The position numbers were made by a program, and so were the translations under genes. Below, piece by piece: positions 4,622-29,722 of a DNA stretch of 64,000 bases. The notes under the pieces were generated by a model. The model was not told the DNA's origin and did not search any database. It saw only the letters and a program-made list of their open reading frames with translations. How positions within the stretch are numbered: position 1 is the stretch's first letter; the number at the start of each line of letters is the position of its first letter. Source of the DNA: a virus; IMG/VR virus record IMGVR_UViG_3300003323_000790, positions 1 through 64,000 of that record; one strand, given 5' to 3'.

Positions 4622-4848
4622 GCAAAGAACTCAATCGACCCTCTGTATCTCCTGCCGTACTGAAGGCCGTCGAGGCAGCATGGGCAGACCAAGCAAAGAA
4701 TCTTCCAGGTCCGCACAGTCCCGTCTATCGAAAGGCCGAAGCGACTTTCTTCAGCGGCGCAATCGCAGCCTTTGAAGCACAGGGCATGAGCCTAAACACC
4801 AGCTGGGTGCTCAAGATCCTGTCGAGCCAGAACGTAGTATCTGCTTGA
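4618..4848 (+). CDS. hypothetical protein
   Basis: 76-aa ORF, AAAGGA SD. Confidence 0.65.
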   Translation: MSKELNRPSVSPAVLKAVEAAWADQAKNLPGPHSPVYRKAEATFFSGAIAAFEAQGMSLNTSWVLKILSSQNVVSA

Positions 4849-4874
4849 CATGCACTGGTCGGTGGCGAGATACT
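4845..4874 (+). promoter_or_regulatory. sigma70-like promoter
   Basis: TTGACA-N18-GATACT directly upstream of structured RNA element A. Confidence 0.55.
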
Positions 4875-4879
4875 ACGTC

Positions 4880-5031
4880 ATCGGCTGGTAACCGATCCTT
4901 CTGCAGTGTCACATCATAGTTTTCTCTGTCCTCCCTGCTCGCTTTCATGGGAGACGCTTTGTCACTGCCAAGGCGATATCTTGGTCGGCTTTACCACCCG
5001 GCTGTGAGCTGGGAGGCCAGAGAAAATTATG
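4880..5031 (+). ncRNA. structured RNA element, copy A (leader of HNH gene)
   Basis: Long stem 4915-4942/5004-5031; loops TGGTAA (4886) and TTACCA (4991) complementary; GCAGTG (4903)/CACTGC (4963); same architecture as 11474-11636. Confidence 0.75.
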
Positions 5032-5598
5032 TCGATCAATGACTTCAAGTACCGCGACGGTTTATGGGCGTACTCTGCCCGGCTGCCTAACACCAAACGA
5101 GTCACTCTCACCTACGCCGGTAATGCTTGGCATGGAGTACAGGCAAGGTGCCTGCCTCACGCGGCAGGCCCTGCGCCGCGTCAGTGCGGCTTCGCTGATT
5201 TTCAGCAATTTGCTGAGTGGTTCGTGCGGCAGCCCGCCTACAGCTTTCCCGGCGGCGCAGATTTAGATAAAGACCTGCTCTACCAAGGCAATACACTCTA
5301 CTCTCCGGAGACCTGCTTGTTGCTACCTCCAGAGATCAACGGGTTTGTGGTGTATAAGCCACCCGGACAAAAGGGACTCCCGCCCGGCGTATCAAAGCGG
5401 CCAGGACGCAGCTATGAGTCGCGAATTTGTGAATTCCGAGAGCGGCGGTTAGTAGGTAAATTTAAGAGCGCGGAAGCAGCACATGCCGCGTACCGAGAAG
5501 CCAAAATGCAGCGAGCTGCGCAGCTAGTGGCAAAGTACGCAGAGTACCTGCCAGCAGCCGCGATAGAGGCTTTGTTGAACTACCACACGAGAGTCTGA
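5029..5598 (+). CDS. HNH-like homing endonuclease with AP2-like C-terminus
   Basis: FADFQQFAEW...LDKDLL...YSPETC..PPEIN; LPPGV...GKFKSAEAAHAAY; lower GC than neighbours. Confidence 0.8.
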   Translation: MSINDFKYRDGLWAYSARLPNTKRVTLTYAGNAWHGVQARCLPHAAGPAPRQCGFADFQQFAEWFVRQPAYSFPGGADLDKDLLYQGNTLYSPETCLLLPPEINGFVVYKPPGQKGLPPGVSKRPGRSYESRICEFRERRLVGKFKSAEAAHAAYREAKMQRAAQLVAKYAEYLPAAAIEALLNYHTRV

Positions 5599-5642
5599 TT
5601 AGTCTCAGTGAGGGAGCTAATTTTCTTTAAAGGACCCACACC

Positions 5643-8042: not shown

Positions 8043-8068
8043 ACAGGAACTAGTTATTCGTGTAGCCT
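8040..8068 (+). promoter_or_regulatory. sigma70-like promoter for HNH gene
   Basis: TAGACA-N17-TAGCCT followed by GGAGG SD. Confidence 0.45.
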
Positions 8069-8090
8069 TCAAGCAATTAACGGAGGTTGT

Positions 8091-9191
8091 ATGAATAAGA
8101 AATTACAGTTGGCTGGACTGCGCTTCGGGCGATATCTCGTTATTGAAGAGTATCAGGGGGCAGGGCAGAGCACATACCCTCGCTGGGTGTGTCTCTGCGA
8201 CTGCGGCACATTCCGAGCAGTGTCTGGCTCAGCCTTGCGACGAGGGGGCTCACTTTCTTGTGGATGCGTATCCGCACAGATCCAGAGCATGCGCAAGATC
8301 AAGCACGGACTTTCTCGCAGCCCGGCTTACAACACCTGGCGGAATATGCTCAGCCGCTGCACCGACCCGAGAATTCACAACTACGGTAACTACGGGGGTC
8401 GGGGAATTTCAGTTTGCACTGAGTGGCTAGAATTCGAGAATTTCTACCGTGACATGGGAGACAGGCCGCCGAACATGACGTTAGATCGTATAGATAACGA
8501 CGGCAATTACACGAAGGAGAATTGCCGTTGGGCCAGTCGTAAAGAGCAGTCGTTGAACACTGGTAAGAATCGAAAACTGACGCTTAATGGCGTCACGAAA
8601 ACTGTAACAGAGTGGGCACAAGATCTCGGCATAAGTCGAGGTACGCTGCAGACTAGATTGAAAAACTGGCGTGACGTTGAAGCAATATTGACGACACCAG
8701 CTCACGTCAAAGTACCTCCCGAGCGATCGGGTCGTGTCGTTAAACCTCGTAAGAAACCCACATATAAATGTAACTGCAAAAGGAGCAACACCATGAGCAA
8801 TAACATCTTCCAGTCCCTGAAACAGCACCTGCGTTACGCCTCCATCAAGGGCGAGCTGACCACCGAGCAGCTGTTCGAGCTGCCGCTGCAGTCCAAGTCC
8901 GGCTTCGACCTGGATTCCGTGGCGCGCGGCATCAATACCGAGCTGAAAGCGGCCGGCGAAGAATCGTTCGTCACCGCCGCCAACCCAGCGCGCACCGCGC
9001 TGGCGCTGAAGCTGGACGTGGTGAAAGAAATCATCGCCGATCGCCAAGCAGACAACGAAGCGAAGGCAGCGGCCAGCGCGAACGCCGAACGTCGCGAGCT
9101 GCTGAAAGGCATCCTGGCCGAGAAACAAAACGAAGCGCTCAAGGCCCTGACGCCTGAGCAGATCGCCGAAGAGCTGAAGAAGCTGGGCTAA
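8091..9191 (+). CDS. HNH homing endonuclease, reading in frame into the downstream gene
   Basis: CLCDCG...SCGC, YGGRGI, TLDRIDNDGNY..ENCRWA; no stop before the internal start at 8793. Confidence 0.8.
   Translation: MNKKLQLAGLRFGRYLVIEEYQGAGQSTYPRWVCLCDCGTFRAVSGSALRRGGSLSCGCVSAQIQSMRKIKHGLSRSPAYNTWRNMLSRCTDPRIHNYGNYGGRGISVCTEWLEFENFYRDMGDRPPNMTLDRIDNDGNYTKENCRWASRKEQSLNTGKNRKLTLNGVTKTVTEWAQDLGISRGTLQTRLKNWRDVEAILTTPAHVKVPPERSGRVVKPRKKPTYKCNCKRSNTMSNNIFQSLKQHLRYASIKGELTTEQLFELPLQSKSGFDLDSVARGINTELKAAGEESFVTAANPARTALALKLDVVKEIIADRQADNEAKAAASANAERRELLKGILAEKQNEALKALTPEQIAEELKKLG
8793..9191 (+). CDS. conserved coiled-coil phage protein
   Basis: Own AAAAGGAG SD and ATG; GC-rich codon usage resumes; EQLFELPL motif. 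Confidence 0.8.
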   Translation: MSNNIFQSLKQHLRYASIKGELTTEQLFELPLQSKSGFDLDSVARGINTELKAAGEESFVTAANPARTALALKLDVVKEIIADRQADNEAKAAASANAERRELLKGILAEKQNEALKALTPEQIAEELKKLG

Positions 9192-10589: not shown

Positions 10590-10744
10590 AGGTGACTCCA
10601 CGCTTAATCATCGCGGCGGCCACCGCCGTTGCCGCCGCGGCACGCCTGTTCGCCACGGCGCAGGCGTCGAACATGCCGCCAGTGGAGCGCCGCAAGGCGC
10701 AGGTGCTGCCGCTGCCGGTCAAGCGCCGCAAATCAGATAAATAG
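10586..10744 (+). CDS. small protein (52 aa, not in ORF track)
   Basis: MKVTPRLIIAAATAVAAAARLF...; ATGA overlap. Confidence 0.45.
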   Translation: MKVTPRLIIAAATAVAAAARLFATAQASNMPPVERRKAQVLPLPVKRRKSDK

Positions 10745-10771
10745 TTTATACCATTTTAAAGGAGCACTACC

Positions 10772-11455
10772 ATGACCGACAAACGTTCCGACCCCGACTA
10801 TCAAGAAGCCGTCAGCAACTTCGTTCGCAATAACGTCGTGTGCTGCGTCAGCGGCCTCTTCTCCGATGTACTCAAGCTGGTGCAGAACGCCAGTCGCGAC
10901 ACCTTGCGGGAGACCTCGTTTGACGAGGAAGAGATGATGGAGCTGTGCGAGCACAAAGACTACGAAGAGGCGGCCCGCCAGCACATCAAGGACATGGATC
11001 GCGACGACCTGATCAGCGCCCTGTCCGACGCCAGCGTGAAAGATGATCGCCCATCCAACGAAATCGGCAACGCCGCTATGGAGCGGCTGATGAAGCAGAT
11101 CGAGGAAGGCGACTGCGATCCGGCCATCGACGGCTCGATCGAAGAAGGCGGCTTTGCGCTGATGAGCGAATGGCCCGGCATCAGCGACGACGATCTGCGC
11201 GACAAGCTGGGAGCAGCGCTGAACGAAGACGACGGCTGGCAGGAGTTCTGCGACGAGCAGGGCGTCGATCCTGAGTACGTCGAAGTCTACGAGCACTGGG
11301 TAGTCGACCGCTGGTTCGCCGCGCGCCTGGCCGAATATGGCGAAATCACCGGCGACTTCGGCGGCCTGACGGTATGGGGCCGCACCTCGACCGGCCAAGC
11401 CATCAGCATGGACTACGTGGTCTGCCGCATCTACGATGACTTGCACAACAGTTGA
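10772..11455 (+). CDS. acidic hypothetical protein
   Basis: AAAGGAG SD; EVYEHWVV...WGRTSTGQAISMD; very D/E-rich. Confidence 0.8.
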   Translation: MTDKRSDPDYQEAVSNFVRNNVVCCVSGLFSDVLKLVQNASRDTLRETSFDEEEMMELCEHKDYEEAARQHIKDMDRDDLISALSDASVKDDRPSNEIGNAAMERLMKQIEEGDCDPAIDGSIEEGGFALMSEWPGISDDDLRDKLGAALNEDDGWQEFCDEQGVDPEYVEVYEHWVVDRWFAARLAEYGEITGDFGGLTVWGRTSTGQAISMDYVVCRIYDDLHNS

Positions 11456-11469
11456 TTCTAGGCTACTCT
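11441..11469 (+). promoter_or_regulatory. sigma70-like promoter
   Basis: TTGCAC-N17-TACTCT upstream of RNA element B. Confidence 0.55.
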
Positions 11470-11473
11470 GTAG

Positions 11474-11636
11474 GAGTCGGCCTAATGAACCGACTCTTCG
11501 AAACGCTTCAAGTAACTCAGCTTCTTTCTGACTTCCAGCCTGTGCTGTAAGGCTGTGCTTCGTCTCGTTTCGCGGAACATATCCTGTCGGCCTCATTACC
11601 CGACGGCAGGCTGGAAGCCAAAAAGGAGTTGAGATG
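11474..11636 (+). ncRNA. structured RNA element, copy B (leader of HNH gene)
   Basis: Long stem 11516-11543/11606-11633 covering AAGGAG; loops TAATGA (11483)/TCATTA (11593); CGAAACG (11499)/CGTTTCG (11566). Confidence 0.75.
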
Positions 11637-12248
11637 CCACACGCCCAGGAAAGACAGAACCGTAGAGGTGCGGTCTGCGTAATCATTCCGGATTTCCGAG
11701 ATCGGGAAGGGAAGTGGGTGCGTACCCATCGAGAGGGTGGTCTTAAAGGTACACAGTATGTGACGGTAGCTGACAAACTCTATCGCAATATGCTGGCTCG
11801 ATGTACGCCAGGCTACAAGACTGCAGCTTACCGAGACTGTAAAAACAAATTCGCTGACTTTCAGGAATTTGCGGAATGGGCGCAGACGCAGGTTGGTTAT
11901 TATCAGCCCGGCTGGCAGCTGGATAAAGACCTGCTATGCCCAGGCAACCGGACCTACTCAAGGGACTTTTGCACATTCCTGCCTCCGGAGGTAAATTTAG
12001 CTTTAGCCAGAGGAAGCAAACCCAACAGCTTGGGAAAGGGTGTCCACCCAAGTGGAGAGAAATACACCGCACAGCTTTCCCACAATGGGCGTCCCCATTA
12101 CATAGGAACATTCAATACAGTGGGTGAGGCCCGAGAAGCCTACGCGCAAGCTAGAAGGAAGAAACTTTCTACCTTAGCGGAGAAGTACAGAGAATCGCTC
12201 GATAGCCGAGCCTACTACGCACTGCTCTGCTTTCCAGCAGAGAGATAA
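11634..12248 (+). CDS. HNH-like homing endonuclease with AP2-like C-terminus
   Basis: FADFQEFAEW...LDKDLL...YSRDFC..PPEVN; YIGTFNTVGEAREAY. Confidence 0.8.
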   Translation: MPHAQERQNRRGAVCVIIPDFRDREGKWVRTHREGGLKGTQYVTVADKLYRNMLARCTPGYKTAAYRDCKNKFADFQEFAEWAQTQVGYYQPGWQLDKDLLCPGNRTYSRDFCTFLPPEVNLALARGSKPNSLGKGVHPSGEKYTAQLSHNGRPHYIGTFNTVGEAREAYAQARRKKLSTLAEKYRESLDSRAYYALLCFPAER

Positions 12249-12266
12249 CTTAGGAGGAAGTGCCCC

Positions 12267-12776
12267 ATGAAATTAGTGTCAGCAGAAACCGGCGATGCCT
12301 ACACCATCGGCATGGTCGTCGAATACCTGCCCGGCCGTCGCGGCCAGCACATCGAGTGGGTGAAGATCGTCGAGATCGACAAGCTGCTCAAGACGGTGAC
12401 CGTGCGCGACTGCAATGGAGGCCTGCTACTCACCTCGCCCGAGCCCTTGGGCCTGGAGTTCCGCAGCACGGCCGCCCAAGCTCGCAAGCTGCTGGCCCAA
12501 GTCGAGGAAGAGCGGAAGGCCATCGTGCAGAAGACATCGCAGGTGGGCAAGACCGAGACGATGTTCTTGGTCGGGCTGCATGCACTCGGCAGCCGGGCTG
12601 CCCACGTGACGCCGACCGAGCTCGACGCCATCTTAGCCGGGCTGCGCCTGCTACAGACGGACTTGCGAGTGTCCGAGAATATCCCGAGCAGCATCCACGA
12701 TATTTTCACCAACAACGGCGCCCACGGCGGCCTGACGATCGAAGAGATCGACGTGCTGTGCGAGAGGCTGAACTGA
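12267..12776 (+). CDS. hypothetical protein
   Basis: GGAGG SD, 169 aa. Confidence 0.7.
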   Translation: MKLVSAETGDAYTIGMVVEYLPGRRGQHIEWVKIVEIDKLLKTVTVRDCNGGLLLTSPEPLGLEFRSTAAQARKLLAQVEEERKAIVQKTSQVGKTETMFLVGLHALGSRAAHVTPTELDAILAGLRLLQTDLRVSENIPSSIHDIFTNNGAHGGLTIEEIDVLCERLN

Positions 12777-12786
12777 GGAGAACACC

Positions 12787-13470
12787 ATGCCACTGCTATA
12801 CGACACCAAAATAGTGAAATATAAGGGACGACAGTATCGTACCACCTTCCCGTATGACGACGATCATCCCAAGCCTTGGGTGGGGGACGACGGCCGCGGC
12901 ATCGTGCATAGCACCAGCTTTCACGCCGATAAGCGGCCCGGCTGGCGTCCGCTTCCTGGCTACGGCGATACGGCCAAATGGTTCGACTGGGCCGGCACGA
13001 TCAAGAAGGCCAAAGAAGAAGACTGGGGGCTGTCGGCCAAAGATCGCGCAGCATTGGCAGCCGAACTTGGTGCTGACCCTACGCCCGGTCAGATCATCGA
13101 ACGAGCCGTCCAGAAAGAATATGACTTCCTTCTCGCTTATATGCAAAATAACTGGTATTACGTCGGCATTGAGGTCACGTTGCTGAACGAAGACGGCGAG
13201 CCAGACGAGTCCTTGCAGGACACTTGCTGGGGCTTCGAGACGTGGAAGGATTACCACCTGGAAGCCGCACAGGGGATGGTCGAGGAGCTGGACGTTCGTG
13301 TCGAAAAAGAGCTGGCCAAGCGCTACGCTGACGAAGCGCGTGATGCTCGGGTTCGTGAACAGGCGCGCGCCGGCGGCTGCGACTTGGTTATCCTGGACGA
13401 CGCCGGGGTGCGTGAGGTCGGTGAGGGTTACTGGGTGGTGGCTGAGCTCTTCGTGCCGAAGACGTCATGA
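12787..13470 (+). CDS. hypothetical protein
   Basis: GAGGAG SD; WYYVGIEV...CWGFE. Confidence 0.75.
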   Translation: MPLLYDTKIVKYKGRQYRTTFPYDDDHPKPWVGDDGRGIVHSTSFHADKRPGWRPLPGYGDTAKWFDWAGTIKKAKEEDWGLSAKDRAALAAELGADPTPGQIIERAVQKEYDFLLAYMQNNWYYVGIEVTLLNEDGEPDESLQDTCWGFETWKDYHLEAAQGMVEELDVRVEKELAKRYADEARDARVREQARAGGCDLVILDDAGVREVGEGYWVVAELFVPKTS

Positions 13471-16601: not shown

Positions 16602-16954
16602 CAGCCAAGGAGTGGTGGAGCTGGGTGCACCCAATCGACAAGTGGCTGCTCTGCAGTTACGGTGCGAGCCTTGCGATATCAGCTCTGGCCGGCAACTGGT
16701 GGCCTATCTTCGGCTTGCAGCTGGCTACCGCCTTGGCGTACAGCCTGTATGTAATGGAGCGTGTGCGCGCCGACCGACTGCATGCCCTCAATAAAATGCT
16801 GGCCCAGTGCCTGGAAGAATGCGGTGAGGCCGGCATCGACTGGCAGCGCCGCAGCGAGGCTTTCGAGCAGAGCCTCAAGGAAGGGGCCGACGCCATCGGC
16901 GTCGCCAATTTGATCATCCACGGCCGTGGCCCACGGCCAGACAGAAAGGAGTGA
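16598..16954 (+). CDS. membrane protein
   Basis: Two N-terminal hydrophobic helices. Confidence 0.65.
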   Translation: MTAKEWWSWVHPIDKWLLCSYGASLAISALAGNWWPIFGLQLATALAYSLYVMERVRADRLHALNKMLAQCLEECGEAGIDWQRRSEAFEQSLKEGADAIGVANLIIHGRGPRPDRKE

Positions 16955-17559
16955 AGATGAATATCGTCCCGGACACATGGGACTCAGAAGGGAACTGGGT
17001 TAGGAGCTATTACGTGGGCGGTCAGCGCTATACAACCAAGGCAGACGTCGTCTGGAAGAACATACTGGCTCGCTGTATCCCTGGCGGCCCGTACCAGACA
17101 AGGGTGCCGAGCTATGTGGGCTGCACCAACGGCTTCGCAGATTTCCAGGAATTCGCTTCCTGGGCGACCTTGGCAGTCGGGTACGGCCGAGAGCACTGGG
17201 TCATTGACAAAGATCTGTTGGCTGGTGGCCGAGGTAAAGTCTACTCGGCCGAGGTATGTCTTTTCATCCCGAGGGAGATCAATTCTTTCCTGACGAACGC
17301 TGCCGCAGTACGTGGAGATTTGCCCGTCGGTGTGGTGCGCGACACAGGTAAATGGGGCAGAACTGGTTACATGGCGCAGTTGCAAGATGGCACGCGGCGG
17401 AGAACTTTAGGGCGCTTCCACACAGCTAAAGATGCCTTTTCCGCCTACAAAGAAGCCAAAGAGGCTCGCGCGCGACAGCTTGCAGACCACTACGCGCCAA
17501 GCCTTGACGCCCGAGCTGTACAAGCTTTGCGAGATTTTCGCGTCCACTTCGACGCATAA
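16951..17559 (+). CDS. HNH-like homing endonuclease with AP2-like C-terminus
   Basis: FADFQEFASW...IDKDLL...YSAEVCLFIPREIN; LPVGV...LGRFHTAKDAFSAY; paralogue of 5029 and 11634 but without the RNA leader. Confidence 0.8.
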   Translation: MKMNIVPDTWDSEGNWVRSYYVGGQRYTTKADVVWKNILARCIPGGPYQTRVPSYVGCTNGFADFQEFASWATLAVGYGREHWVIDKDLLAGGRGKVYSAEVCLFIPREINSFLTNAAAVRGDLPVGVVRDTGKWGRTGYMAQLQDGTRRRTLGRFHTAKDAFSAYKEAKEARARQLADHYAPSLDARAVQALRDFRVHFDA

Positions 17560-17585
17560 CTACCTCAACATAAAGGACTGACAAA

Positions 17586-18059
17586 ATGGGAATCTTCTCC
17601 AGCATCCTGGAGGCCTTGGGCCTCAAGAAACGCAAGAGCCTAGCGCCGGCGTATCCGAAGTTTCCAGAGCCGACTCGGCCGGCCCCGCCGGTGCCGAAGA
17701 TCAAGGCCTTCCAGCCCCTGCGCAGCCCGCCGCCTCCCGAGCCGCCGGCGACGCGCCGCATTCGCGATGACCAGCCACCGCCAAAGCCCTCCACGGCCCC
17801 TACAGCGCGCGCTACGGCCGAGGAAACCCGTCGGCAGCAGGACGACCACTACAGCTGGCCCTACGGCCCTGGCGGGGTTCTGTACGACCGCACCGGGCAC
17901 ATGACGTCCAGCTTCGACAGCAGTCCGGCGCCGTCGCCAGCGCCGTCTTCGTACGATTGCCCGGCACCGAGCCCAAGTCCGAGCTACGACAGCCCATCAC
18001 CATCTAGCGACTGTTCGCCATCGTCGAGCGATAGCTCGTCTTCCAGCAGCTGGGATTAA
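17586..18059 (+). CDS. Pro/Ser-rich low-complexity protein
   Basis: AAGGA SD; amphipathic N-terminus, PxxP tracts, poly-Ser tail. Confidence 0.65.
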   Translation: MGIFSSILEALGLKKRKSLAPAYPKFPEPTRPAPPVPKIKAFQPLRSPPPPEPPATRRIRDDQPPPKPSTAPTARATAEETRRQQDDHYSWPYGPGGVLYDRTGHMTSSFDSSPAPSPAPSSYDCPAPSPSPSYDSPSPSSDCSPSSSDSSSSSSWD

Positions 18060-22138: not shown

Positions 22139-22210
22139 ATTCTGGCATGAAACTTGCCCTGGGTCAAAGAAGAAGTCCACAGTGACACAAATGAGAAAGT
22201 TTGATAGATT
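22139..22210. promoter_or_regulatory. divergent sigma70-like promoters
   Basis: Minus strand TTGACC-N17-CAGAAT (22167-22139); plus strand GTGACA-N17-TAGATT (22182-22210). Confidence 0.55.
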
Positions 22211-25218: not shown

Positions 25219-25731
25219 ATGGTTACCGATAAAGAAAAAGAACAGCGAGCCAAAGAGGCCGCCTGGAACATCGCCGCCCTGGCTGGCTCTCCTGATCTGC
25301 AGGCCTACCGCATGCTGGCTTCCAAGGTGCGCGGCCTGGCTCGACATAACTCCGCGCTGGCGGTATGGGAGATCCAGGACGGCGAGATTTACGTCCGTAA
25401 CCGCTACTTCGTCATCAACGCGGCGGCCACACTGGAGCACGGCATGCGCCTGTTCCTGCGGGAGGAAATGACCCGCGCAACCTTGGAGATCGGCCACATC
25501 CCCACCCGCCTGCCCGGCACCGACTGCTTTGTGTGGGTCCCACGCCACACCGACGCGCGCTTCTGCCCGTCGGACCCGGCGGACGTGACCAGCCACACCC
25601 GGCTCTCAATGGGCATTATGTTCGGCTGCCCGGCGCGCATCGGCACCCTGGTGGAGGGCAAGGAATACCTGACCCTTGCCCGAGACATCGAATCTTACCG
25701 ACAACAGCTGGGAGCATTGGCACATGCCTAA
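25219..25731 (+). CDS. hypothetical protein
   Basis: GAGG SD, 170 aa. Confidence 0.7.
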   Translation: MVTDKEKEQRAKEAAWNIAALAGSPDLQAYRMLASKVRGLARHNSALAVWEIQDGEIYVRNRYFVINAAATLEHGMRLFLREEMTRATLEIGHIPTRLPGTDCFVWVPRHTDARFCPSDPADVTSHTRLSMGIMFGCPARIGTLVEGKEYLTLARDIESYRQQLGALAHA

Positions 25732-28700
25732 TTTCATCTACTACCAAGTCAAGGGTGGTGAAGAGCGCTGGACGGTCGGACCAGCCTCGCAGGTAGAGCG
25801 CATTCGCGACGAATTCAACCCTATGTTCATCACGGCCCTGTCGGTGGCCAAGATGCCTGAAGAGCTGGAGTACGACGAGAAGCTGAAGCTGGCCTACTAC
25901 GGTCCGCTCTATTTCGACTGGGATTCCGAGGACGGCGCCCACGTGATCGAGAAGGTCAACGAGATGCTCGACAACCTCGAAGAGCTAGGCCTGGACCTGC
26001 ATGCCTGCCGGCTCTACGCCACCGGCGGGCGAGGCTATCACCTGGAGATCCCACCCTATCTCTTCATCGACAAAGACCCGTCCAACCGCGGCGTGGTGAT
26101 GCTGCCGGCGATCTACCGCGAAATGGCGCTGGACTTGGCCGTCGACACCCTTGACCTGACGATCTATTCGACCGGGCGCGGCCGCATGTGGCGCCAGCCT
26201 AACGTCGAGCGCCAGAACGGCCGCTATAAGGTGCCGATCACGGTGGACGAAATGCGCTCGATGACCGTCGAGCGTTGCGAAGAGCTGACCTCCAAGCCGC
26301 GCTCCTTGGAAGCACCGACCAAGGCCGAGTTGTGCCTGAAGCTGAACATCAAGTACGAAGAGGCCAAGCAAAAAGTCGAGGCGCTGATGAAGCGTCGCGG
26401 CAAATTCAAGGCCGATCCGAAGGCCAAGGAGAAGGCGAATGGCCTGTCGGTCGAGATGATGCTGGCCGGCCTGGGTATCAAGGAAGGTTCGCACTTCCAG
26501 CAGATCGCCACGCAGCTGGCGATCGTGGCGCACACGGCCGGCTGGTCGGAGAGCGATCTGGTCGAGAAAGCGCAGGGGTTGGTGAACAGCCACCAGAGCG
26601 ACGGCAATCGCTACAACAGTCCGGAGAAGCGCAACAATGAGCTGCGCCGCATGTGGCGCTACATGTACGACAACGTCTGCTACGAATTCAGCATCGGCGC
26701 CCTGAAGGCGCTGATGTCACACTCGGCGCCCGACTTGGACAACATCCCAACGACGCGCGAAGAGCTGGAGCAGACCATCAAGGAAGAGGCGGCGGCCGAG
26801 GCGGAATCGGAAGATCAGGAGATCGACGAATACGCCGACGTCGCCGCCGGCATTTCGCTCACCAAGTACGGCGTGTACATGCAGACCGCCACCGAAGGCA
26901 AGAAGCGCATCTGCGCTGTCTCCTTCGAGACATCGGCGGTGCTGTTCTCCACTGAGTCCGGCCAGATCGTGGCCTTCGAGGCCGAGGTGCTGGTCAACGG
27001 GCGGCCGTCGGGCCGCCAAACCCTTGAGCTGGATGTGTTCTCCGGCCTTGTGCAATTCAATCGCTTTGTGGCCCGCTACGGGCACTCATTCCAAGGCACA
27101 GATCTTCAAGTACGGACGGTTATGATGCGCTTTGTCGAGCAAGCAAAAAAGAAAGGCGAGAGCCTGTACATCGTGAAGCGGGAAGGACTTGACCTCGTCA
27201 ACATCCAGCACCACGAAAACGAACTCTACCGCAAGCCCTTCCTGGTGTGGGCTGACCACCACCAAGTCGTGCTGCAAAAAGAAATCGCCGAGTCGGGCCT
27301 GAACCTCGTCTTCACCGGCTTCCCTGATCCGCAGGGTGAGTTCAAAACCGACCTGTCACAGGCGCCGGTGCTCAAGGAGTGGATCGAAGAGCCTGGCAAT
27401 AAGGAAAAGCTGCGCGACGTGCTGCAGGCGGCGATGACCTGCCAGAAGTCGGAGCTGATCGGCAAGTACATCGGCTGGTATGTGGCCTGCTTCTGGAAGC
27501 CGCTGTTCCAGGCGGCGTACGGCAAGTTCCCGCTGCTGCACGTGAACGGCGCGGCGGGCGCCGGGAAATGTATGGGGTTCAACACTCCGGTGATCATGGC
27601 CGACGGCACCACGAAAATGGTACAGGACGTGCAGGTTGGCGACCAGTTGCTCGGACCGGACGGCGGCGTACGCAACGTGCTGTCGCTGGCGCGCGGCCGG
27701 GAGCTGATGTACCGCGTGACCCCGGTAAAGGGTGACTCGTATGTTGTAAATGCGTCACACATCCTGAGCCTGAAACGTTCAGATCGCTCCTGCCGGCTGT
27801 CGGACGGGACTCAGGTTACCGCGGCAGATGACGTCGTGAACGTCAACGTCGAGGTCTACGCACACAGTTCGGCTGCCGCCCGCAAGGCGTTGAAGGGGTG
27901 GCGCAGCGACGCGGTGGAATTCCACCGCGAGGCAGAAGACCTGCCGCTGGACCCTTACTGGCTGGGCGTATGGTTGGGCGACGGCAAGCACGACCTGCCG
28001 CAGATCACGAAGCCAGCAGATACGAACATGGTGCGCTGGTGGATTGCCCACGCTGAGCAACATGGCCATCTGGTCTCTCGCCATGAGTATGATGATCGCT
28101 GCCCGAGCTGGGCGGTACGCTCTAAGGACGGGCGCTGGGATGCACAAGGCAACCAGTTCACGCAGCGCCTGCAGGCCCTCGGCCTGCTGGGCAACAAGCA
28201 TATTCCGGCGGCATACAAGTTCGCGCCGATGGAAGACCGCTTGCGTCTGCTGGCCGGCCTGATTGACTCCGACGGCTCCCTGGACAAGGCGGGCTACGAC
28301 TGGGTCAGCAAAGACAAGTCACTGGCGGAAGATTTTGCCTTCCTCTGCCGCTCGGTCGGCCTGGCCGCTTATGTCAAGGAGTGCACGAAAGGTATCCAGT
28401 CGACTGACTTTGTGGGCACCTACTGGCGCGTGAGCGTCAGTGGGGACTGCGACAAGATCCCTTGCCTGGACAAGAAGGCGCCGCCACGCAAGCAGGCAAA
28501 GCGTGTGACGGTGACTGGCATCTCGGTGGAGCCTATCGGCGTGGACAACTACTACGGTTTCCAGATCGACGGCGATCATCTGTTCTTGCTGGGCGACTTC
28601 ACGGTCACCCACAACACCGACATGACCAAGTCCTTCTCCTGCTTCTTCTACCACCAGCGCGAGCCGTACTCGACGTCGCCGACCTCGACCGTCTTCTCGA

Positions 28701-29722
28701 TCACCCAGCAGATCTCCAGCACCTCGTCGATCCCCTTCGTACTGGACGAGTACAAGCCGCACGCGCTGCAGGGTGACATGGTCAACAAGTTGCGCGCGAT
28801 CTTCCGAGACAGCTACAACCAGACGATGATGGCGCGCGGCGGCGGCACACGCGAGAACGACGACTACCGCCAGCTCCAGCGCACTCAGCTGTCGGCGCCG
28901 GTGGTATTCATCGCCGAGGCGGCCGAATCCGAGCCGGCCGTCATGGAGCGCGTGGTGCTGGCCACCGTGGTGCCGCCGCCGGCGTCGATGAAGAACACGT
29001 GGCGCGCGCGGTTCCAGCTGTTCCGCCAAAACCGCGAGCTGCTGGGCATCCTGGGCCAGTACCTGGCCGCCAAGGTCGTGCAGTCCTATTCGGTGGACCG
29101 CCTGCGCACGGAGTTCAACGACCTGTACGAAGAGGCTGCCAACACCTACATGCTCAACGCCGACGACATCGAGCGCATGAAGGCCGGCGACCTGGACGAA
29201 GAGCTGTCGCTCAAGGCCAACGCCAAGGAGCGCTCGGTGTACAACCACACGGTGGCCAAGTTCGGATTCCAGCAGTTCAGGAGCCTGATTAACCAACTCT
29301 TGGGACCTGTGCTTGATGACCTGATGGGCGAACTTGAGTCCGGTCTCTACGCGCGCATGTCCGACTTGCAGGCCTCGACCACACCGGAAATTGTCCGCGT
29401 GCTGGAGACGATGTCGCGCATGACCTATGCGACGGAGGACACCCGGCCGGATGCGTTGCGCGAGAACTACGAATATGCGATTGCCGGCGACACCTTGGAG
29501 CTGGACGCTTACTCGGCCTACACGCGTTATCGCATCTTCATGCGCCAGGCTGCCTTGCAGCCGCTCTTCCCTGACGTCTATCCATTCCTGCAGGCGATGA
29601 AGGACTTGGAGGCGTACAAGTCGACGGCGACGGGCGATCACTTGAAGCGGCCGCAGGTGATTGTGCTGTCGATCAACGCGCTGACCCGCGCCGGCGTGCC
29701 GCCATTTAAAGGCGGCAAATAA
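25724..29722 (+). CDS. primase (AEP-like)-helicase fusion containing an intein
   Basis: YFDWD and TGGRGYH AEP-like motifs; Walker A GAAGAGK|T; Walker B VLDEY; GGAG SD before ATG 25724. Confidence 0.85.
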   Translation: MPNFIYYQVKGGEERWTVGPASQVERIRDEFNPMFITALSVAKMPEELEYDEKLKLAYYGPLYFDWDSEDGAHVIEKVNEMLDNLEELGLDLHACRLYATGGRGYHLEIPPYLFIDKDPSNRGVVMLPAIYREMALDLAVDTLDLTIYSTGRGRMWRQPNVERQNGRYKVPITVDEMRSMTVERCEELTSKPRSLEAPTKAELCLKLNIKYEEAKQKVEALMKRRGKFKADPKAKEKANGLSVEMMLAGLGIKEGSHFQQIATQLAIVAHTAGWSESDLVEKAQGLVNSHQSDGNRYNSPEKRNNELRRMWRYMYDNVCYEFSIGALKALMSHSAPDLDNIPTTREELEQTIKEEAAAEAESEDQEIDEYADVAAGISLTKYGVYMQTATEGKKRICAVSFETSAVLFSTESGQIVAFEAEVLVNGRPSGRQTLELDVFSGLVQFNRFVARYGHSFQGTDLQVRTVMMRFVEQAKKKGESLYIVKREGLDLVNIQHHENELYRKPFLVWADHHQVVLQKEIAESGLNLVFTGFPDPQGEFKTDLSQAPVLKEWIEEPGNKEKLRDVLQAAMTCQKSELIGKYIGWYVACFWKPLFQAAYGKFPLLHVNGAAGAGKCMGFNTPVIMADGTTKMVQDVQVGDQLLGPDGGVRNVLSLARGRELMYRVTPVKGDSYVVNASHILSLKRSDRSCRLSDGTQVTAADDVVNVNVEVYAHSSAAARKALKGWRSDAVEFHREAEDLPLDPYWLGVWLGDGKHDLPQITKPADTNMVRWWIAHAEQHGHLVSRHEYDDRCPSWAVRSKDGRWDAQGNQFTQRLQALGLLGNKHIPAAYKFAPMEDRLRLLAGLIDSDGSLDKAGYDWVSKDKSLAEDFAFLCRSVGLAAYVKECTKGIQSTDFVGTYWRVSVSGDCDKIPCLDKKAPPRKQAKRVTVTGISVEPIGVDNYYGFQIDGDHLFLLGDFTVTHNTDMTKSFSCFFYHQREPYSTSPTSTVFSITQQISSTSSIPFVLDEYKPHALQGDMVNKLRAIFRDSYNQTMMARGGGTRENDDYRQLQRTQLSAPVVFIAEAAESEPAVMERVVLATVVPPPASMKNTWRARFQLFRQNRELLGILGQYLAAKVVQSYSVDRLRTEFNDLYEEAANTYMLNADDIERMKAGDLDEELSLKANAKERSVYNHTVAKFGFQQFRSLINQLLGPVLDDLMGELESGLYARMSDLQASTTPEIVRVLETMSRMTYATEDTRPDALRENYEYAIAGDTLELDAYSAYTRYRIFMRQAALQPLFPDVYPFLQAMKDLEAYKSTATGDHLKRPQVIVLSINALTRAGVPPFKGGK
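27569..28615 (+). mobile_element. intein (349 aa) with LAGLIDADG endonuclease in Walker A
   Basis: CMGFNTPVIMADG...VNASHIL...LGVWLGDG...LLAGLIDSDG...YYGFQIDGDHLFLLGDFTVTHN followed by Thr+1. Confidence 0.95.

Follow-up and report, generated by a model that had tools for sequence, protein, structure and literature searches.

In the first 64,000 nucleotides (the window) of the 80,992-bp virus record IMGVR_UViG_3300003323_000790 from IMG/VR, which is rated 100% complete, two HNH-AP2 endonuclease genes encoding 36% identical proteins (paralogues A and B) are each preceded by a cis-acting 5′ leader of about 160 nt, in which a long-range stem buries the Shine-Dalgarno (SD) sequence and the start codon. 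Two further long-range pairings, one between the loops of hairpins H1 and H2 and the other between the segments S2a and S2b, are found in both copies with changed sequences. Homing endonucleases need to be produced in tiny, well-timed amounts, and the leader most likely keeps the nuclease scarce. From the predicted folds we consider it reasonably probable that the element is a translational-control leader travelling with a free-standing homing-endonuclease gene, and that pairings formed early during transcription delay closure of the stem over the ribosome-binding site (RBS).

Architecture and conservation of the leader

Every motif that a first-pass annotation of the window had named for copy B was found in place. 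The parts of this copy, and the gene that it precedes, are listed in order along the plus strand.

11441-11469 (+), promoter-like box: TTGCAC (11441-11446), 17 nt, TACTCT (11464-11469)
11474-11496 (+), H1 hairpin: GAGTCGG (11474-11480), loop CCTAATGAA, CCGACTC (11490-11496); 7-bp stem and 9-nt loop
11499-11505 (+), S2a: CGAAACG, complementary to S2b
11516-11542 (+), 5′ strand of the long stem (anti-SD strand), pairing with 11607-11633
11544-11553 (+), weak 3-bp hairpin with a GUAA loop; its position is kept in copy A, its sequence type is not
11557-11564 (+), conserved block GCTTYGTC (GCTTCGTC in copy B), a possible linker
11566-11572 (+), S2b: CGTTTCG, complementary to S2a
11574-11584 (+), small hairpin GGA-ACATA-TCC; in copy A, (C)AAG-GCGATAT-CTT(G)
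11586-11604 (+), H2 hairpin: GTCGG-CCTCATTAC-CCGAC; 5-bp stem and 9-nt loop
11607-11633 (+), 3′ strand of the long stem, including the SD AAGGAG (11623-11628) and ending at position -1 of the ATG at 11634
11634-12248 (+), paralogue B, HNH-AP2 gene of 204 aa; phrog_953 ('HNH endonuclease'), E 2.1e-41

The H1 loop of copy B contains TAATGA (11483-11488), which is complementary to the H2 loop with its TCATTA (11593-11598). H2 ends 19 nt before the SD, and the RBS is buried by the separate 27-bp long stem, whose 27 positions comprise 23 Watson-Crick pairs, two G-U pairs and two single mismatches; three further pairs may extend it into the U and G of the AUG. The hairpin at 11544-11553, described earlier as a GTAA (GNRA) tetraloop hairpin, is present in copy B with only three pairs, and its counterpart in copy A, with U-A, U-G and U-G pairs around CAUG, is not of the GNRA type. 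The unpaired blocks CTTC, GCTTYGTC and ATATC are conserved between the copies.

Some of these segments have alternative partners. GCTTYGTC could serve as the 5′ strand of a hairpin of 7-8 bp (11555-11562 with 11573-11580) that would show S2b in its loop, and, read by hand, this hairpin has two compensatory pairs, two one-sided changes and one break between A and B. The top of the anti-SD strand of copy B, CAGCCT, can pair locally with AGGCTG (11550-11555) as a possible decoy hairpin, for which an equivalent pairing, CTCCC/GGGAG, is available in copy A. Upstream of the helices, the putative promoter box of copy B would place the transcript start at about the first bases of H1. The corresponding box of copy A, TTGACA-18-GATACT (4845-4874), matches 10 of the 12 sigma-70 consensus positions and is flagged by a sigma-70 scan.

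Copy A has its parts in the same order as copy B.

4845-5031 (+), copy A leader including its box (leader 4880-5031)
4880-4896 (+), H1
4903-4908 (+), S2a
4915-4942 with 5004-5031 (+), long stem, AUG included
4963-4968 (+), S2b
4969-4983 (+), small hairpin
4984-5002 (+), H2
5029-5598 (+), paralogue A, HNH-AP2 gene of 189 aa, 36% identical to B; phrog_953, E 1.1e-37

The two leaders are diverged copies of one RNA element, as the first-pass annotation had proposed. A covariance model was built from copy B alone, a choice made to test the relatedness of A and B without circularity, and its best match in the window outside B itself is copy A (39.9 bits, E 2.7e-8); the next match is just the reverse complement of B's own stem. 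In the model-based alignment of A and B, which was fitted to structure, 96.2% of cells are paired, compared with 37-51% when the partners are slid by 1-3 columns. Twelve of the 40 nested pairs in this alignment are changed on both sides, and 10 of these belong to the long stem, where 25 pairs are compared. RNAalifold alone recovers the same helices and shows two-sided change in 13 of 40 pairs. In both copies the long stem spans AAGGAG and adjoins or includes the AUG, in agreement with the SD occlusion noted earlier, and the SD and AUG are buried in each although the stems differ at most positions. Compensatory change, on which the earlier argument for a selected fold had relied, is seen in the long stem, the small hairpin and the loop-loop pair, and more loosely in S2.

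The predicted folds of the complete leaders are exceptionally stable for their composition (copy B, -73.8 kcal/mol, z -5.47; copy A, -78.1 kcal/mol, z -4.83), and for neither copy does any of 200 shuffles fold as well. Identity between the leaders is 53% (86 of 161 aligned columns), and because this equals the identity of codon positions 1 and 2 of the genes (55%) and lies above that of position 3 (29%), purifying selection acts on the leader. In both copies the fold of the sense strand is more stable than that of the antisense strand by 5.5-6.5 kcal/mol, and an RNA made from the antisense strand was rejected on this ground. Four helix classes, two of them long-range, have been maintained through about 64% protein divergence.

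Long-range pairings and the predicted order of folding

The H1 and H2 loops are complementary through TGGTAA/TTACCA in copy A and TAATGA/TCATTA in copy B; of these six pairs, three are identical in the two copies and three have both bases replaced. S2a and S2b pair as GCAGTG/CACTGC in A and as CGAAACG/CGTTTCG in B; the position of S2 in the leader is kept to within 1-2 nt, and its sequences are unrelated. In 50,000 shuffles of the loops, a 6-nt loop-loop complementarity arises with a frequency of 0.0026 for copy A and 0.0006 for copy B, and in 50,000 shuffles of the joining segments a complementarity of S2 length arises with a frequency of 0.045 and 0.015, respectively. Within its own leader and the first 170-200 nt of open reading frame (ORF) sequence, the best partner of each element is the cognate one; cognate partners pair over 6-7 nt, cross-copy partners over at most 4 nt. 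The different loop codes could keep the copies orthogonal, as had been suggested, but orthogonality need not be a selected trait, because compensated drift explains the codes of a cis-acting element.

From end to end, H2 is nearly the reverse complement of H1: the two hairpins have the same TCGG/CCGA stems and reverse-complementary loop cores. Because they are complementary over about 16 nt, the loop-loop kiss may equally be an extended long-range H1:H2 duplex of about 16 bp, nested with S2. Neither this duplex nor S2 uses a base of the long stem. The outer core pair of H1, which covaries (A-U in A, G-C in B), is the sole pair that discriminates the hairpins from the extended duplex, in which it would be an A-C mismatch in copy A; the covariation of this single pair favours intact hairpins. 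The H1/H2 and S2 pairings may be present alongside the long stem, in a pseudoknot, or may form ahead of it and act as a kinetic trap.

For an RNA that stops just short of the long stem's 3′ strand, the minimum-free-energy (MFE) fold in both copies consists of H1:H2 and S2 closed around the anti-SD strand (for copy B, -41.4 kcal/mol, z -3.20, with none of 200 shuffles as good). The growing transcript was also folded in steps of 6 nt, with the MFE fold taken at each length, and the predicted order is the same in A and B: H1 forms first, S2 once S2b exists, H1:H2 once H2 exists, and then the long stem, to which the fold switches only after 6-12 nt of the 3′ strand are out. The direct path from the early fold to the long-stem fold has a barrier of 30-35 kcal/mol in a pseudoknot-free model, a value to be taken as an upper bound, since pseudoknotted intermediates are open to real RNA. 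The pairings need not build the single static three-dimensional fold put forward in the first-pass annotation: in these predictions the extended H1:H2 duplex nested with S2 is the nascent fold of both copies.

The predicted folds suggest how the leader might act. In the end state, the long-range stem of 25-28 bp would pair the upstream strand with the SD and start codon and block ribosome loading. So stable a helix should leave essentially no ribosome access at equilibrium, and for this reason the gene would be either silent or expressed by a non-equilibrium route. The H1 loop or arm could pair with H2, and S2a with S2b, during transcription and before the 3′ strand exists, and these early pairings would close a domain around the anti-SD strand. 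We infer that closure of this domain delays zipping of the long stem and so opens a brief window for translation on each nascent transcript; alternatively, the pairings may persist and lock the closed state as a pseudoknot. A stricter form of the idea, which we hold only tentatively and consider rather unlikely, is that S2 and H1/H2 form the copy-specific lock of a topological RNA timer, allowing one short burst of translation per transcript followed by permanent shut-off. In such a timer, S2 and H1/H2 would enclose the anti-SD strand in a loop of about 60 nt during transcription, the 27-bp helix would be unable to wind more than about one turn through the closed loop, and the SD and AUG, which lie in the lower part of the helix, would be free until the lock opens.

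Several points weigh against a leader in which early pairings delay closure. The comparison involves just two sequences from one genome, with no homologue found in the collections scanned, the covariation statistics are thin, and the covariance-model alignment was fitted to the structure. S2 has moved by 1-2 nt relative to conserved anchors between the copies, and is best described as a relocated helix with a new sequence, not as strict column-wise covariation. The shortened RNA of copy A, ending before the 3′ strand, folds with marginal significance (-37.0 kcal/mol, z -1.99, 9 of 200 shuffles as good), and the kinetic interpretation is built on nearest-neighbour predictions that are blind to pseudoknots. 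The early pairings and the long stem have no base in common, so that they may simply exist side by side. The hairpin presenting S2b and the small hairpin are mutually exclusive, and both have some compensatory support. The decoy hairpins are short (5-6 bp), and by a rough estimate about 0.3-1 such matches are expected by chance. Lastly, the box of copy B, although its sequence is as annotated, is weak as a promoter, matching 6 of the 12 sigma-70 consensus positions and passing unflagged by the sigma-70 scan.

One possible reading, though not one that we expect to be correct, is a static pseudoknotted fold in which the long stem, the loop-loop kiss and S2 exist together; being very stable, it would act on the 5′ end of the mRNA as a repressor or stabiliser, and its opening, if any, would need some factor. 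It is compatible with the absence of shared bases and with the A-U to G-C change in the outer pair of H1, which favours kissing hairpins over the extended duplex, and the conserved unpaired blocks CTTC, GCTTYGTC and ATATC are typical of tertiary contacts or of a protein site. Its geometry is demanding: by our own estimate, with 25-27 bp closed (about 70 Å), the linker of 6-10 nt between S2a and the base of the stem must reach partners at the stem top, which works only with the inner arms folded back along the stem, and threading is needed for a helix exceeding two turns that joins one strand within the S2-closed loop to another lying outside it. The long stem might instead be a site for host RNase III, whose cleavage would free the SD or destroy the mRNA; such cleavage reportedly takes place at sites in T7 early mRNA and in the lambda N leader. 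Both copies have a helix that exceeds two turns and contains single mismatches, and the full block at equilibrium makes active opening attractive, but cleavage would leave the covariation of H1/H2 and S2 unexplained, and we judge it improbable.

We find it very improbable that the leader follows the T4 scheme, in which a middle or late promoter lies between the strands of the long stem, so that its transcripts, lacking the 5′ strand, are translatable and read-through transcripts are silent. The part of PMC2988022 drawn on here documents this arrangement for I-TevI, I-TevII, I-TevIII, segB and Aeh1 mobE, and an ATATC block is indeed conserved about 50 nt upstream of both ATGs. However, a sigma-70-type scan found no promoter inside either leader, the conserved blocks are spaced by 11-13 nt instead of 16-18 nt and co-occur nowhere else in the genome, and the scheme assigns no role to H1/H2 and S2. 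Nor do the leaders contain anything resembling the promoter family of the phage itself (TTGAC..N..TGC-CAnAAT). The inverted hexamers of H1 and H2, 104-110 bp apart, could also be DNA half-sites through which the AP2 domain of the nuclease represses its own gene, with the RNA folds incidental. I-TevI represses its own promoter through an operator resembling its homing site, according to the same portion of PMC2988022, and the hexamers differ between the paralogues as do their DNA-binding domains. Six separate inverted-repeat pairs, one of 27 bp ending exactly at the start codon, are far simpler to explain as RNA helices, the sense strand has the better fold of the two strands on account of its G-U pairs, and the hexamers, as read from the sequence, sit at differing offsets in their palindromic stems, which matters to a protein and not to loop pairing; operators of this kind are thus extremely unlikely. 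We give equally little credence to the idea that the RNA is a ribozyme or processing element or serves the nuclease as a cofactor. Its size of about 160 nt, the pseudoknot-type pairings and the position before an endonuclease gene recall such elements, and a lariat-capping ribozyme is said to lie before the I-DirI gene. Against this, even the most permissive search, confined to the two short loci, brought no Rfam family, ribozymes included, close to its threshold, no strictly conserved core extends beyond short blocks, and paralogue C and 15 family members elsewhere do without the element.

Some simpler candidates were rejected. Small ORFs are present in both leaders, in copy B at 11485-11550 (+), with 21 codons, an ATG in the H1 loop and GGAG 8 nt upstream, and in copy A at 4906-5007 (+), with 33 codons from a GTG in S2a and no SD; they differ in place and sequence, which excludes a conserved leader peptide. 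Both small ORFs traverse the anti-SD strand, and their translation would open the long stem. An N-terminal extension of the nuclease was dismissed for want of an in-frame start upstream. A dispersed repeat was likewise discarded, as A and B alone combine the conserved blocks with H1/H2-type hairpins, and an apparent third site near 68721 lies inside a coding sequence.

Genomic setting and search for relatives

The uncultured phage is siphovirus-like; its products include a tape-measure protein of 2,326 aa, a DNA polymerase of its own, an SbcC-like protein and a helicase. Cultured relatives are distant, the nearest having at most 52% identity in one conserved 692-aa protein, and the kin of the phage share just the gene for this protein and part of the gene at 8091. 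Because the closest proteins among 5.8 billion sequences are at most 41% identical, close kin of the phage appear to be unsampled.

The genome carries three HNH-AP2 endonuclease paralogues of PHROG family 953 with pairwise identities of 36-42%, the third of which is without a leader.

16951-17559 (+), paralogue C, HNH-AP2 gene; phrog_953, E 2.7e-44; no leader

By their profile matches, the three products are predicted members of this phage HNH endonuclease family. Evidence for the AP2 domain is weaker: the Pfam AP2 match, found in paralogue B only, scores 24.4 bits, under the cut-off of 33.3, and a profile of paralogue B matches plant AP2/ERF structures in the PDB (E 4.4e-4). A tree of 20 family proteins leaves the relationship of A, B and C unresolved (support 65/75, with A on a long branch). 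About 180 nt of non-coding DNA precedes each of A and B. Paralogue C, in contrast, starts within the end of the upstream ORF, which also contains its SD AAGGAG, and neither covariance model matches there, in keeping with the earlier observation that this paralogue lacks the element.

The three cassettes have a G+C content of 0.52-0.56 (4801-5600, 11601-12400 and 17201-17600) compared with about 0.60-0.63 in their flanks, which is consistent with acquisition from elsewhere. Because the gene upstream of B terminates where its homologues terminate, B is a free-standing cassette in an intergenic site, and not an intron or part of a split gene. A split host gene or intron was rejected on this basis, with only 11-18 nt following the nuclease ORF and no group I match.

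SD burial recurs in the phage, where an unrelated HNH gene at 8091 has its own simple SD/AUG hairpin. This hairpin of 17 bp (8054-8098 (+), -16.6 kcal/mol, z -3.49), of the simple T4-like kind, takes up GGAGG (8082-8086) and the AUG (8091-8093) by pairing them with bases further upstream. The gene (8091-9191 (+); phrog_374, E 2.4e-68) encodes a 366-aa protein in which an HNH domain (residues 1-250) is seemingly fused to a phrog_2018 domain (residues 237-365). Because five related phages (L082, L059, L078, L060 and L098) have only a short homologue of part of this protein after their 692-aa gene, comparison of these loci suggests fusion of the nuclease with a resident gene, or its insertion into one.

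Searches for relatives of the leader returned no further member. Rfam 15 gives no match at the gathering threshold over the window, permissive searches return just miRNA-like long-hairpin noise far under threshold, and blastn of 10700-12900 against GenBank phages gives no match. Three IUPAC patterns were derived from the blocks conserved between A and B, and the loci that they matched were then scanned with the covariance models R1 and R2. The patterns give 40, 4 and 0 matches in viral contigs, 10 in genome contigs and at least 120 in metagenome contigs. No full-length model match was obtained in the viral or genome loci, nor in 80 of the at least 120 metagenome matches; six local matches cover only the stretch specified by the pattern.

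The models also find no leader at the 3 + 12 IMG/VR loci (13 distinct places) that encode other members of the nuclease family, where the DNA upstream is mostly coding. The suggestion that the nuclease might need the RNA finds no support, the members at these loci and paralogue C having no such leader. No model match was found in 48 loci around homologues of the neighbouring 692-aa gene or in 14 whole related records, which include EBPR siphovirus 2 and Pseudomonas phage Zuri, and six loci centred on upstream-gene homologues gave none below E 1. For the gene at 12787, IMG/VR contains no relative. Across the viral, metagenome and genome collections scanned, the leader motif has two recognized members, both in one genome.

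Two other observations concern the rest of the record. Promoter-like sites of a sigma-70-like family with an extended -10 element (TTGAC..-N-..TGC-CAnAAT) occur in the window at 22139-22167 (-) and elsewhere in the genome at 65413-65441 (-), 65922-65950 (+), 71967-71995 (-) and 74462-74490 (-). An ORF of 1,348 aa (25673-29716 (+)) is an odd combination: its N-terminal region is primase-like (phrog_16345, residues 56-344), and its middle (residues ~620-980) matches 'terminase large subunit' families.

Comparison with known systems

To our knowledge, the combination of hairpin and late promoter in T4 is the only well-studied control of homing endonucleases, and we found no paper whose main text describes a loop-pairing leader of such genes. 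The passages of PMC2988022 considered here describe T-even endonuclease genes (I-TevI, I-TevII, I-TevIII, segB and Aeh1 mobE) that are kept down by RBS-sequestering RNA structures. As in the leader described here, a very stable RNA structure takes up the SD of a selfish phage nuclease gene, and on this evidence the two would have a common purpose, that of keeping the nuclease scarce or late. The T-even genes combine simple hairpins with a middle or late promoter whose position deprives late transcripts of the 5′ half (PMC2988022), whereas the present leader has a long-range stem, an inner domain of about 65 nt and two further covarying long-range pairings, and a promoter of the T-even type was not found inside either copy by the sigma-70-type scan. 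RBS sequestration of phage homing-endonuclease genes is therefore known, and what is new is a more elaborate and possibly kinetic architecture.

A bacterial parallel is provided by the timP toxin mRNA, for which the portion of PMC13000454 used here describes a pseudoknot and a long-range structural switch. Both are leaders of harmful proteins; in timP a 5′ untranslated region (UTR) pseudoknot and a long-range pairing compete with or relieve an SD stem, with no processing, and similar pairings may do so in the present leader. timP belongs to a bacterial type I toxin-antitoxin system and has no sequence relation to the leader described here. The metastable structures of aapA3, as presented in part of PMC6733600, are close in spirit to the kinetic route proposed.

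The closest counterpart in architecture is the maturation gene of MS2, for which delayed folding with a metastable hairpin has been shown experimentally (PMC4615214, in the part cited here). In both systems a multi-hairpin domain separates the SD from the complementary upstream strand with which it pairs. In MS2, translation occurs only before this long-distance pairing closes, and a transient structure involving the upstream strand postpones closure (PMC4615214); a similar kinetic role is what the predicted folds would suggest for H1/H2 and S2. MS2 has an RNA genome, a 7-nt pairing and a trap that is one small hairpin (PMC4615214), whereas the present leader belongs to the mRNA of a DNA phage and has a stem of 25-28 bp, with a domain closed by two long-range helices as the candidate trap. 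The likeness to the 5′ UTR of levivirus maturation genes is one of architecture only and not of homology. Provided that the extra pairings do act as a co-transcriptional trap, the leader would be a DNA-phage counterpart of MS2 delayed folding, and would offer a compact natural part for the pulse-limited expression of toxic proteins.

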